From positions 1 to 14,328 of the IMG/VR virus record IMGVR_UViG_2778261450_000002: a stretch of 14,328 bases of DNA; one strand, written 5' to 3'. The position numbers and the translations under genes are program-made. The notes under the pieces are model-generated. The model did not search any database. It was not told the origin of the DNA and was given only the letters and a program-made list of their open reading frames with translations. This document shows, one piece after another, positions 1-13,443 of this stretch; the first letter of the stretch is position 1; each line of letters begins with the position of its first letter. This stretch comes from a virus. Taxonomy: Duplodnaviria; Heunggongvirae; Uroviricota; Caudoviricetes.

Positions 1-1248
1 ATGGCACTGAATATTCCATTCAGAAATGCGTACTATCGTTTTGCATCCAGTTACTCATTTCTCTTTTTTATTTCCTGGTCGCTGTGGTGGTCGTTATACG
101 CTATTTGGCTGAAAGGACATCTAGGGTTGACAGGGACGGAATTAGGTACACTTTATTCGGTCAACCAGTTTACCAGCATTCTATTTATGATGTTCTACGG
201 CATCGTTCAGGATAAACTCGGTCTGAAGAAACCGCTCATCTGGTGTATGAGTTTCATCCTGGTCTTGACCGGACCGTTTATGATTTACGTTTATGAACCG
301 TTACTGCAAAGCAATTTTTCTGTAGGTCTAATTCTGGGGGCGCTATTTTTTGGCTTGGGGTATCTGGCGGGATGCGGTTTGCTTGATAGCTTCACCGAAA
401 AAATGGCGCGAAATTTTCATTTCGAATATGGAACAGCGCGCGCCTGGGGATCTTTTGGCTATGCTATTGGCGCGTTCTTTGCCGGCATATTTTTTAGTAT
501 CAGTCCCCATATCAACTTCTGGTTGGTCTCGCTATTTGGCGCTGTATTTATGATGATCAACATGCGTTTTAAAGATAAGGATCACCAGTGCGTAGCGGCA
601 GATGCGGGAGGGGTAAAAAAAGAGGATTTTATCGCAGTTTTCAAGGATCGAAACTTCTGGGTTTTCGTCATATTTATTGTGGGGACGTGGTCTTTCTATA
701 ACATTTTTGATCAACAACTTTTTCCTGTCTTTTATGCAGGTTTATTCGAATCACACGATGTAGGAACGCGCCTGTATGGTTATCTCAACTCATTCCAGGT
801 GGTACTCGAAGCGCTGTGCATGGCGATTATTCCTTTCTTTGTGAATCGGGTAGGGCCAAAAAATGCATTACTTATCGGAGTTGTGATTATGGCGTTGCGT
901 ATCCTTTCCTGCGCGCTGTTCGTTAACCCCTGGATTATTTCATTAGTGAAGTTGTTACATGCCATTGAGGTTCCACTTTGTGTCATATCCGTCTTCAAAT
1001 ACAGCGTGGCAAACTTTGATAAGCGCCTGTCGTCGACGATCTTTCTGATTGGTTTTCAAATTGCCAGTTCGCTTGGGATTGTGCTGCTTTCAACGCCGAC
1101 TGGGATACTCTTTGACCACGCAGGCTACCAGACAGTTTTCTTCGCAATTTCGGGTATTGTCTGCCTGATGTTGCTATTTGGCATTTTCTTCTTGAGTAAA
1201 AAACGCGAGCAAATAGTTATGGAAACGCCTGTACCTTCAGCAATATAG
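1..1248 (+). CDS. cscB: LacY-family oligosaccharide:H+ symporter (MFS), probably sucrose permease; flanks the prophage
   Basis: 415-aa ORF from ATG at 1 to TAG at 1246-1248. Hydrophobic throughout, with LacY-like blocks (GIVQDKLGLKKPLIW, FEYGTARAWGSFGYAIG, PKNALLIGVVIMALRIL, EVPLCVISVFKYSV). Length and N-terminus match my recollection of E. coli CscB; the symbol is from memory and not verified. Confidence 0.8.
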   Translation: MALNIPFRNAYYRFASSYSFLFFISWSLWWSLYAIWLKGHLGLTGTELGTLYSVNQFTSILFMMFYGIVQDKLGLKKPLIWCMSFILVLTGPFMIYVYEPLLQSNFSVGLILGALFFGLGYLAGCGLLDSFTEKMARNFHFEYGTARAWGSFGYAIGAFFAGIFFSISPHINFWLVSLFGAVFMMINMRFKDKDHQCVAADAGGVKKEDFIAVFKDRNFWVFVIFIVGTWSFYNIFDQQLFPVFYAGLFESHDVGTRLYGYLNSFQVVLEALCMAIIPFFVNRVGPKNALLIGVVIMALRILSCALFVNPWIISLVKLLHAIEVPLCVISVFKYSVANFDKRLSSTIFLIGFQIASSLGIVLLSTPTGILFDHAGYQTVFFAISGIVCLMLLFGIFFLSKKREQIVMETPVPSAI

Positions 1249-1256
1249 ACGTAAAC

Positions 1257-1301
1257 TTTTTCCGGTTGTTGTCGATAGCTCTATATCCCTCAACCGGAAA
1301 A
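1257..1301. repeat. 11-bp perfect inverted repeat (TTTTCCGGTTG / CAACCGGAAAA) with 22-nt spacer, directly after the permease stop
   Basis: Arms at 1258-1268 and 1291-1301 are exact reverse complements. The loop is long for an intrinsic terminator and there is no clean T-run, so the function is unclear (terminator, REP-like element or junction scar). Confidence 0.35.
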
Positions 1302-1775
1302 TAATAATAGTAAAATGCTTAGCCCTGCTAATAATCGCCTAATCCAAACGCCTCATTCATGTTCTGGTACAGTCGCTCAAATGTACTTCAGATGCGCGGT
1401 TCGCTGATTTCCAGGACATTGTCGTCATTCAGTGACCTGTCCCGTGTATCACGGTCCTGCGAATTCATCAAGGAATGCATTGCGGAGTGAAGTATCGAGT
1501 CACGCCATATTTCGCTATCAGGATTCTGTGTGATGGTTACATCGCCCGGCTCAGGGCTGTTTAGTCATCAGCGCTTTCTGACAGTGCTGAGATTTCAACC
1601 TGTTGCAGTAAAAATGAGTAGATATAAGGCAAGTGTGCTGCCAAACCCATCTTTTACGGGGTGAAGGTAGATTTCGTTTGAAGGGTATCTGGTGCCCTGC
1701 AGACATCTACTTGGCGCGGCAGGGGATTGATTGGAATGGTGTTTTTTAGATGTGAAAAATATTTTACCCGCTATT

Positions 1776-1976
1776 TTACCCATTGGCGCGGCTTAAGAGC
1801 TTATTTTTGAATTCACAATGGTCACGATATAACCATCTTGCTCGCCCGTGGATAACTTTGGCTTTTGGCAGGTCGCCGGACTTAATCCGGTCATAGATGA
1901 AGGTCTTACCGAAGCCAGTATCAGCCATGATGAATTTCAAATCAACCAGTGAATCAGGTTGTAGTTCGTGTTGCAT
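1776..1976 (-). CDS. AlpA/Xis-family excisionase-like HTH DNA-binding protein
   Basis: 66 aa, ATG at 1976-1974 preceded by a GGAGA Shine-Dalgarno. Sequence (…LKFIMADTGFGKTFIYDRIKSGDLPKAKVIHGRARWLYRDHCEF…) fits the AlpA/excisionase winged-helix pattern. No integrase ORF follows it. Confidence 0.6.
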   Translation of the reverse strand: MQHELQPDSLVDLKFIMADTGFGKTFIYDRIKSGDLPKAKVIHGRARWLYRDHCEFKNKLLSRANG

Positions 1977-2749: not shown

Positions 2750-3361
2750 TTAGCCACGGTTAACCTCCAGTTGTGGTGCTGCCTCAATAGCAGCCCTGTA
2801 ACCAGCAGCATGACCGCGAAAGTTAGCAATCTCTGATAGCCACGCTTTAATCATGGCCTGAGTTGGTTCCTTCGGCACCATAACCCAACCATCCGGAATT
2901 ACCGGAGAGTTGCCACCGGGAATATTTTCCGGAATATTTTGTTGTGCGTTTTGTGGTTGTTCGGATTTACCCTGAAGCATGGCGGCGCGGCAGGCGTTCC
3001 AGCCAGCTGTTCGCCCAAGCGCGTAAACTTCAGATGGCTCAAGATAATCAATGTCATGCCCGTCCTCATCGTCGTTCTCAGGTAATGCAGCAGGTACTAC
3101 CGGTACTGGCGGAGCGGCGTAGACTTCAATAATCCCATTGTCAATAGGCCATTCTCCATCCTTGAGATAGTCACTTGTGCCGTCAACTTGCTGTTCAGCA
3201 ATGTGGAATGCACCAACTGGTTCTGCCTCAAGCGAGGCCAGTGCAATTCGTGCCAGTTCCCTAAGATTTTCGCTATATGGTGAAGTATTATCACGATTGA
3301 TTATGTGATTAGCTGTATCTATGAGAACTTGCTTTTGTTCTTCTCTGTTCATAGTGGTCAT
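2750..3361 (-). CDS. hypothetical phage protein (203 aa, acidic/Pro-rich central region)
   Basis: Long ORF with ATG start, 1 nt downstream of the stop of the preceding gene in the leftward operon. No family recognised. Confidence 0.65.
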   Translation of the reverse strand: MTTMNREEQKQVLIDTANHIINRDNTSPYSENLRELARIALASLEAEPVGAFHIAEQQVDGTSDYLKDGEWPIDNGIIEVYAAPPVPVVPAALPENDDEDGHDIDYLEPSEVYALGRTAGWNACRAAMLQGKSEQPQNAQQNIPENIPGGNSPVIPDGWVMVPKEPTQAMIKAWLSEIANFRGHAAGYRAAIEAAPQLEVNRG

Positions 3362-3362
3362 A

Positions 3363-3662
3363 TCACATCACCCTGAAGCCGTTGCATTTACGTAAGAAAT
3401 CGCAGATATAGCCCTTCATTTTTTCGTGCCAATCCCGATCATTCCCATTGCACCAACCATCAGGTGGAGTCCAGTTTTCTATCAGAGCAGCCATTTTCTT
3501 TGCTTTCGCCGGAGTAGCTGTTGCGGTATCGCAGTAATGACGAGTGTCAACAAACTTATCCATGCCATCGATATCAAGTACGCAAAACCATGTGTGATTC
3601 GGCATTTCAACAGATGGTATTTGTTGCCCACGTCGACGTTTATCAATAAGACATACAGTCAT
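3363..3662 (-). CDS. hypothetical phage protein (99 aa, Cys-containing)
   Basis: Its ATG (3662-3660) overlaps the TGA of the upstream reading frame (ATGA at 3659-3662), indicating translational coupling. Confidence 0.6.
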   Translation of the reverse strand: MTVCLIDKRRRGQQIPSVEMPNHTWFCVLDIDGMDKFVDTRHYCDTATATPAKAKKMAALIENWTPPDGWCNGNDRDWHEKMKGYICDFLRKCNGFRVM

Positions 3663-4202
3663 GGTTCCACCTTCTCTATTTGCTTAAGACCGTCTCTCAC
3701 TGCATTAAGTACGCGTTCCAGATACTGGTATTTCGGGTTTGGTATCGTTGGCCAGTTGGCATACCACGGATCATCACCAAAGAGATTCAGTAGTTTGTTA
3801 CCGACGCCGAAACAGCAGCAGCTTTCTTTTACGTCATCGGTGTTTTCCGCCTCGTCCCACATTTCGCGAGCCAGTACGGCGTCGATTTCTCTCTCTTCGT
3901 AACTTTATGATTTCTGACTTCACGAAAAGCAGATTTGCATCGTTGTCATCGTCGACCGTGCTTAGCAGTTGAGGGTCGAAATTGTCGATTAGATAATCGT
4001 TGCTAACTCGCTTAATGAACGTCTGCACATCATCACCGCCCATAGCAAACCAAGCCGCTGTCCACGCTTTTCCGTAGCAGGTGATGGTGATTCTTCCCTT
4101 TCCATGTTCGTAGTTTTCAATCATCACTCGAATCGGATCTAGTCGCTCTGCACCGGTTATAACGAATGACAACACATCAATCTTTTCAACCGTTACACTC
4201 AC
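3659..4202 (-). pseudogene. phage gene split into two overlapping frames (3834..4202 and 3659..3862) by a frameshift at a (TC)4T/(AG)4 tract
   Basis: The upstream frame starts with GTG overlapping the previous stop (GTGA at 4199-4202) and ends in a low-complexity tail (LRRERNRRRTGSRNVGRGGKHR). The downstream frame is open from 3904 and reads as ordinary protein (YEEREIDAVLAREMWDEAENTDDVKE…). Both frames are open only across 3834-3904, and the dinucleotide tract 3888-3896 lies inside that interval. A +2 or -1 nt change there would give one ORF of about 180 aa. Confidence 0.45.
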
Positions 4203-4630
4203 TGGTTGCCTCCTTTGCGAAGCTCAGCGGCGAAGGCTACTGCGTGATCATGATGTTCAAGTGTGTATGCGCACTCAGCAAACATCTCCACGCCCTGCGC
4301 TCGTACTTCAGCCAGGAAAGCGTCGGTGGCTGGGGTTTCAGTAACATCATCTTCCCATTCGCTAAACTCCTCACGACAAAAGTCATTAAATTCCTTCTCA
4401 GATTGCTTAAGTGAGGTATTTTCAGCAGCCATCTTCGCGCATTTAGCCTCAAGGTTATCAATCGTGATTCCAACAGAACGACACTCCCGCAACGCCGTTT
4501 CCAGTTTTGATTCAAGTTCACCGAACTTACGGACAAGATATTCAGCGTTTGTTTCGTTGACCTTTAAATCTCGTGGGATGCATTTGCCTTTCAGAAATCC
4601 ATCCATCTCAATTAGTGACATTTGTTTCAT
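4199..4630 (-). CDS. hypothetical phage protein (143 aa, predicted coiled-coil, acidic C-terminus)
   Basis: ATG at 4630-4628 overlaps the upstream TGA (ATGA). Heptad-like charged sequence (…[43 protein letters not shown]…). Confidence 0.6.
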
Positions 4631-4809
4631 TTCTTCCCACTCCGGCACATCGCATTCAGATATTTGTTTTGATTTACTGACGGAAAAGAATTTCTCTTAA
4701 GTAATTCCTCTCTCGATGGCATTGGCTTTACGCGTTGGCGAATAATCATTTCTGCAGGAAGAATGCCGGGGTTGTATGCAAGTCCTCTCATGGTAAATTC
4801 CTCAGTCAT
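4627..4809 (-). CDS. small hypothetical protein (60 aa)
   Basis: ATG at 4809-4807 lies 2 nt before the TGA of the upstream gene (short overlap). Reads [60 protein letters not shown]. Confidence 0.45.
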
Positions 4810-13006: not shown

Positions 13007-13443
13007 AAAAACTAACCTTTGAAATTCGATCTCCGGCACATCAGCAAAACGCTATTCACGCAGTACAGCAAATCCTTCCAGACCCAACCAAGCCAATCGT
13101 AGTGATCATTCAGGAGCGCAACCGCAGCTTAGACCAGAATCGGAAGCTTTGGGCTTGCCTTGGTGACGTCTCTCGTCAGGTTGAATGGCATGGGCGTTGG
13201 CTGGATGCAGAAAGCTGGAAGTGTGTGTTTACCGCAGCATTAAAGCAGCAGGATGTTGTTCCTAACCTTGCCGGGAATGGCTTTGTGGTAATAGGCCAGT
13301 CAACCAGCAGGATGCGTGTAGGCGAATTTGCGGAGCTATTAGAGCTTATACAGGCATTCGGTACAGAGCGTGGCGTTAAGTGGTCAGACGAAGCGCGACT
13401 GGCTCTCGAATGGAAAGCGCGATGGGGAGATCGGGCTGCATGA
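13003..13443 (+). CDS. ninB: NinB (Orf-family recombination mediator)
   Basis: 146 aa from the ATG at 13003 (GAGAGGGAAG RBS): [34 protein letters not shown]…, lambda NinB-like as recalled. Confidence 0.9.
   Translation: MKKLTFEIRSPAHQQNAIHAVQQILPDPTKPIVVIIQERNRSLDQNRKLWACLGDVSRQVEWHGRWLDAESWKCVFTAALKQQDVVPNLAGNGFVVIGQSTSRMRVGEFAELLELIQAFGTERGVKWSDEARLALEWKARWGDRAA

Follow-up and report, generated by a model that had tools for sequence, protein, structure and literature searches.

A phiTE_072-family gene of a P22-like E. coli prophage split by the loss of one AG unit from a short dinucleotide tract

One gene of the Phage_phiTE_072 family, at 3659..4202 on the minus strand of the window (the whole 14,328-nt stretch of viral DNA analysed, drawn from contig NOCP01000003.1 of draft assembly GCA_002549415.1), is split by a frameshift. 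The gene is part of the early-left accessory region of a P22-like E. coli prophage, whose genes run in the order Rad52, SSB, exonuclease, anti-RecBCD, DUF2737, YfdS-like, phiTE_072, DUF7739, then further accessory genes. The explanation we favour, and consider very likely, is that replication slippage at a short-repeat hotspot inactivated this early accessory gene. The features concerned are as follows.

3659..4202, minus strand: the whole frameshifted phiTE_072-family gene (pseudogene), 544 nt long, 2 nt short of the intact 546 nt
3834..4202, minus strand: 5' fragment ORF, 122 aa, made up of 105 native residues and a 17-residue out-of-frame Arg-rich tail
3659..3904, minus strand: 3' portion, ancestral frame, free of stops from 3904; gene calling gives an ORF at 3659..3862, 67 aa
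3888..3896, minus strand: dinucleotide tract TCTCTCTCT, on the coding strand AGAGAGAGA, i.e. (AG)4 plus A; site of the one AG lost relative to (AG)5
4199..4648, minus strand: upstream gene, phrog_614, in an operon with the split gene; 'YfdS family phage-associated protein' according to PGAP in EC38
3363..3662, minus strand: downstream DUF7739 gene (PF24881, E=1e-20), with its own AAGGTGG ribosome-binding motif

The 5' fragment begins with a GTG preceded by AAGGAGG, the GTG overlapping the stop of the upstream gene as GTGA, and it ends as ...KLRRER-NRRRTGSRNVGRGGKHR* at a TGA at 3834-3836; the overlapping start and the Arg-rich tail had been described correctly in the earlier note, which was made from the letters alone. 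The ancestral frame of the 3' part, which is +1 relative to the 5' ORF, is open upstream to 3904, as that note had also stated; from there it reads SYEEREIDAVLAREMWDEAEN... and continues to a TGA that overlaps the ATG of the DUF7739 gene as ATGA (3659-3662). The note had taken this ATGA to mean that the second frame is the one being translated. The overlap with DUF7739 is real, but it bears on the ancestral frame only and does not indicate translation in this allele: the called ORF 3659..3862 starts at what is internal Met115 of the gene, and no Shine-Dalgarno motif was found upstream of that start (CTGGCTCGCGAAATG).

Both frames are open over an interval of only 71 nt, and it is this interval that contains the AG tract at 3888-3896. 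Adding a single AG to the tract joins the two halves in one ORF of 181 aa, which bears out the suggestion that one unit gained would yield a protein of about 180 aa; the intact homologues described below, with (AG)5, have exactly this form. The sequence AGAGAGAGA occurs once in the window, where 0.04 copies are expected from dinucleotide-preserving shuffles. The only other four-unit dinucleotide repeats in the window are at 436-443 (GCGCGCGC, inside the MFS transporter gene) and 13221-13228 (GTGTGTGT).

Alignment to intact homologues, the check that had been proposed, identifies the lesion directly. A single 546-nt CDS occupies the same position in strains 1190, EC38 and FDAARGOS_497 and in phage EC.W1-9; PGAP calls it 'phiTE_072 family protein' in EC38 and 'hypothetical protein' in 1190 and FDAARGOS_497. 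Over 560 nt aligned between the window and these four homologues the sole indel is the AG absent from the window tract: the homologues read CGA AGA GAG AGA GAA ATC, that is (AG)5, the window CGA AGA GAG AGA AAT C, that is (AG)4. In the ancestral allele the peptide K-L-R-R-E-R-E is thus encoded by AAG TTA CGA AGA GAG AGA GAA. The strain-1190 region is 99.4% identical to that of the window over 1.4 kb, and within the gene the two alleles differ by no substitution at all, the AG unit being the only difference; the repaired window protein is identical to one already present in 27 public contigs (P0013). Flanks that match an intact allele so exactly are those of a recent single event, and an indel that lies inside a tandem repeat, amounts to one whole unit and is the only one in the gene is of the kind left by slipped-strand mispairing. 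Of the options that had been put forward at the outset, slipped-strand inactivation is therefore the one supported.

Since the homologues carry (AG)5 and a single 181-aa ORF, the window holds one gene here and not two. Proteins from E. coli, Salmonella phage SSU5 and Klebsiella phages align without a break where the two halves meet (KLRRERE[IL]DA). The intact form matches phrog_3451 over residues 2-179 (E=6.3e-86), and precomputed tables list PF26211, Phage_phiTE_072, for both window fragments and for all 120 homologues listed, so that both halves fall in one family, as the proposal of one split gene of about 180 aa implied. Searches with NCBIfam and Pfam profiles gave no family match for the split gene, so that the Pfam assignment rests on those tables together with the PGAP labels. 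Across Enterobacterales the family is typically 178-181 aa long, and the fused form is found from E. coli to Pectobacterium and Tatumella; the intact form resembles other members over its full length, including the conserved motifs ITCYGKAWTAAWFAMG, KLRRERE and CC, whereas the window copy is a frameshifted member, matching the profile over the whole protein but divided into ORFs of 122 and 67 aa. A literature search for phiTE_072 found no paper mentioning it.

Some members of the family are altered in other ways. Natural read-through fusions (P0032, 280 aa, and P0033, 281 aa) join phiTE_072 to the downstream DUF7739 or DUF551 to phiTE_072, and therefore other frame or stop changes also arise at the overlapping junctions of this operon (ATGA, GTGA). 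A PHROGs profile of 71 positions, phrog_35423, matches residues 115-176 of the intact protein only; it appears to derive from the orphaned C-terminal ends left by frameshifts in phiTE_072 genes, and would thus be an annotation artefact in a reference resource. In phage-plasmids of the SSU5 type (about 105-115 kb; L050-L056, L060-L062, and phage SSU5 itself, L005) the gene before phiTE_072 is always an HD-domain gene, annotated as (p)ppGpp hydrolase/synthetase-like, whose stop overlaps the phiTE_072 start. This pairing, conserved in the phage-plasmids and absent from the P22-like context, could be a hint at function.

The consequences for the protein can be judged from a structure prediction. 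An AF2 model of the intact protein, based on a 47-sequence alignment, shows one compact fold (pLDDT 88.5) in which residues 9-51 form a four-stranded sheet and helices come after it; the frame is broken in the loop that follows helix 87-103. Full-length phage homologues match the predicted fold at TM 0.76; comparison with solved structures gave no match, and the fold, which is predicted with confidence, is novel. The frameshift deletes residues 106-181, which comprise the helices at 109-179 and the invariant W116, C129-C130, W151-P152, Y159, Y161, R164 and R170.

The course of events would then be the following. Slipped-strand mispairing during replication would have removed one AG from an ancestral (AG)5. 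Ribosomes starting at GTG 4202 would pass out of the native frame beyond Arg105 and add 17 aberrant residues, rich in Arg, before terminating at 3834, and the product, short of its last 76 residues, about 40% of the fold together with the invariant CC pair and W, P, Y and R positions, is for that reason most likely inactive. The 67-aa downstream ORF, with its internal Met start and no ribosome-binding site, would be a remnant. Translational coupling into DUF7739 would be lost, because ribosomes now stop 172 nt upstream. Within the gene, promoter and terminator motifs were no more frequent than expected by chance, and no terminator-like site was seen before DUF7739. PADLOC returned no credible defence-system match. 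The gene would have to be dispensable enough for broken alleles to persist, and the same one-unit contraction seems to have arisen separately on ten or more allelic backgrounds, which include prophages of the P22-like and lambdoid types as well as SSU5-like phage-plasmids.

The evidence for this recurrence comes from a collection of 15 billion proteins, in which 12 distinct N-terminal products of the (AG)4 type form one cluster with an identical out-of-frame tail. Their backgrounds differ (MSVTVEK... against MKVEK...; NDYLIDNF against NEYLIGYF). DNA fetched for the truncated products carried (AG)4 in every case and represents ten haplotypes, all of the frameshifted alleles being of this length; they lie in the early-left region of P22-like prophages, downstream of replication genes in lambdoid prophages, and beside the HD-domain gene in SSU5-like phage-plasmids. 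When the missing AG is restored, the protein of every (AG)4 haplotype is found exactly as an existing intact protein, two of them in at least 1000 contigs. The precise 122-aa product of the window is itself in the public collection (P0001). On the commonest background the intact protein (P0016) is in 491 contigs and its (AG)4 product (P0167) in 96; the prophage context was the same in 22 of the 24 P0167 contigs read, and therefore points to clonal spread of a broken allele.

Nine of the (AG)4 haplotypes retain both halves open. L022 (IMGVR_UViG_2639762987_000013, 2856-3050) has decayed further. It belongs to the widespread broken lineage, that of prophages L057/L058, and carries (AG)4 on the commonest background together with an 83-nt deletion in the 5' half of the gene, and so shows that decay went on stepwise once the frame had been lost. 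We had considered L022 as a separate (AG)4 event matching L017, and rejected this: its flanks place it in the L057/P0167 lineage, plus the 83-nt deletion.

Expansions occur as well. (AG)6 was confirmed in DNA on two backgrounds, one P22-like (L059) and one of phage-plasmids (L060-L062, from three sequencing runs), whereas predicted (AG)3, (AG)7 and in-frame (AG)8 products on the common backgrounds tested were absent from the protein collection. The changes in tract length are thus of single units only, contractions being much commoner than expansions, and this is the spectrum that replication slippage produces. Had the lesion arisen once and spread by recombination, every transfer would have required crossovers only a few bases from the tract, and independent slippage accordingly appears far more parsimonious as judged from these alleles. 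With at least ten backgrounds and the (AG)6 expansions, the tract must count as a natural hotspot of mutation and not as the site of a one-off event.

How common the (AG)4 allele is was estimated by a pattern scan of public collections for the two tract flanks with any 4-16 bases between them, which yielded 23 IMG/VR and 10 metagenome loci. Thirty of these 33 loci have a pure (AG)5, two an in-frame interrupted repeat, and one, L022, (AG)4; a 10-nt tract is thus present in 32 of the 33, and the ORF is open in all 32. The two interrupted alleles (L030 and L039, both IMG/VR) read AGAGAGAAAG, encoding R-E-K-E in place of R-E-R-E, and this interruption should stabilise the tract against slippage. 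The same flank pattern had no match in GTDB species-representative genomes. Complete-genome E. coli records carrying the region number 86, none with the window allele; in each of the 60 matches listed, this stretch exceeds the query by 2 nt. Overall, (AG)4 alleles would seem to persist at a few percent, a figure that can only be rough because clonal spread inflates contig counts, which are not independent samples.

Lengths of 4, 5 and 6 units, found on shared backgrounds, changing by single units and toggling the reading frame, could also mean that the tract is kept as a contingency switch, ON with five units and OFF with four or six, through reversible slippage in prophage or phage-plasmid populations; this was among the options of the earlier note. 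We think it improbable, though the least improbable of the alternatives. The polymorphism and its recurrence do speak for it: there are ten independent OFF backgrounds, each with an exact ON counterpart, most OFF alleles are otherwise undamaged in both half-ORFs, and on one background OFF reaches a substantial frequency (96 against 491 contigs). There is a precedent, moreover, in the repeat-mediated phase variation of neuO in CUS-3, a P22-like E. coli prophage (PMC3046976). The tract itself argues the other way, being both short and poorly conserved. At the corresponding position SSU5 has CGC AGA GAG AGG GAA, and the Klebsiella phages pJN2-26 and Kp4856-1 have no repeat at all (CGT CGC GAA CGG GAA and CGG CGT CAG CAG GAA, respectively), so that synonymous or near-synonymous codons have dissolved the tract there, as the interruption has in L030 and L039. 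The repeat has thus not been maintained across orthologues where synonymous alternatives were available; since the peptide motif is conserved and the repeat is not, the repeat is a codon-choice accident of the E. coli clade. Known dinucleotide switches are in general longer than five units, an example being the (AG)12 of MmyCI (PMC3498834). Nor do the OFF alleles behave as one side of a switch might: they make up only a few percent overall and are missing from all 86 complete genomes, and their widespread lineage looks clonal, with one member decayed further.

The fullest form of this idea, in which the (AG)5 of E. coli-clade phiTE_072 genes is a reversible ON/OFF switch whose OFF state might be left leaky by -2 slippage, is equally improbable in our view. 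Were it true, temperate phages and phage-plasmids would carry a dinucleotide contingency locus in a species that is not known for repeat-based contingency loci, and lysogen or phage populations could hedge their production of an accessory protein made early, one that perhaps serves in host takeover or against host defences.

That the (AG)4 is a sequencing or assembly artefact, the real genome having (AG)5 and an intact gene, was another option raised, and there are grounds for suspicion: the source is a draft assembly, a 2-nt indel is all that separates the gene from its nearest relative, and no complete E. coli genome has the window allele. We nevertheless give this little credence. The exact 122-aa product is present in an NCBI assembly and in a Logan re-assembly, the contig in three samples, and (AG)4 is found in well over 100 contigs from many projects and assemblers. 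Short dinucleotide tracts are, besides, not a typical site of consensus error in short-read data.

Still less probable is recoding, by which the (AG)4 allele would go on giving full-length protein through -2/+1 ribosomal frameshifting on AGA GAG AGA or through transcriptional slippage. On paper a perfect -2 re-pairing on AGA GAG AGA is possible and would restore the exact wild-type peptide, and three rare Arg codons (CGA and AGA being rare) are clustered at the tract; by this route (AG)4 may have a low level of leakiness. A programmed frameshift, as the earlier note had envisaged, finds no support, however: the two-frame arrangement is rare, derived and not conserved, all listed family clusters having in-frame single ORFs; folding of 3800-3925 (minus strand) showed no significant downstream RNA structure (z = -0.47 against shuffles); and no Shine-Dalgarno-like stimulator lies upstream of the tract. 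The predicted fold is dominated by a 10-bp complementary pair, AUCGACGCCG and CGGCGUCGGU, at 3877-3886 and 3800-3809 (minus strand), which starts 2 nt past the AG tract and whose two arms have about 66 nt between them. Comparison with shuffles gives it no significance, and other alleles, namely those of the EC38 type, disrupt it. As for transcriptional slippage, it is well documented at long homopolymers and is not known from tracts of four dinucleotide units.

Finally, the notion of two genuine, independently functional overlapping genes, which has in its favour that gene callers annotate both ORFs and that phrog_35423 represents the C-terminal piece by itself, can be considered effectively refuted by the intact homologues and is hardly credible, given that the fused form is in the overwhelming majority, that the first ORF ends in a stretch read out of frame, that the second has no ribosome-binding site, and that the fold is predicted as a single unit to which full-length homologues correspond.

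Replication slippage thus remains the preferred explanation, and the lesion is real but an ordinary slippage mutation, of modest interest as a recurrent hotspot with a 4/5/6 polymorphism. In annotation, the two ORFs should be combined under a single entry for a frameshifted phiTE_072 pseudogene; such fragments already contaminate family resources, as phrog_35423, derived from the C-terminal piece, and the PF26211 hits on both pieces illustrate. The tract is a clean natural example of how a run of just five dinucleotide units can be hit by indels again and again in the genes of enterobacterial phages, and the broken alleles show that prophages survive the loss of this conserved accessory gene. 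The case would matter more widely only if switching at the tract were rapid or the protein had a selectable role.

Elsewhere in the window, a TorI-like excisionase ORF (1776..1976, minus strand) comes no more than about 500 nt after a host LacY/MFS sucrose-type transporter gene (1..1248, plus strand). No integrase was found between the two (window 1-1976), and no tRNA gene in the window. This layout suggests a prophage end of the Sf6/HK620/KplE1 type, with int and xis at opposite ends.

Among known systems, the Helicobacter pylori oipA gene varies in phase through CT repeats (PMC10564699) and the Mycoplasma mycoides MmyCI methyltransferase gene has an (AG)12 tract (PMC3498834). The phiTE_072 gene resembles these in that AG/CT copy number within the coding region decides whether a full-length product is made; the oipA and MmyCI tracts are longer, with documented high-frequency switching, while the present one is at the lower limit of appreciable slippage. 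Closer in setting is neuO of CUS-3 in E. coli K1, in which a poly-psi heptanucleotide VNTR of 2-93 copies follows the start codon and a phase-variable phenotype has been proven (PMC3046976). Like phiTE_072, neuO is a prophage-borne E. coli accessory gene whose frame is set by repeat copy number and altered by single-unit slippage, but here the unit is of 2 nt, present in 4-6 copies in mid-gene, in a tract not conserved among homologues. A further likeness is to the slippage pseudogenes that PGAP marks as 'frameshifted' in prophages, which share with the window gene the loss of a whole unit from a short repeat in a coding tract, intact-like flanks, a truncated product with an out-of-frame tail and an orphan 3' ORF. 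The present lesion is distinguished by its recurrence on at least ten backgrounds and by its reciprocal, an allele with one unit more.
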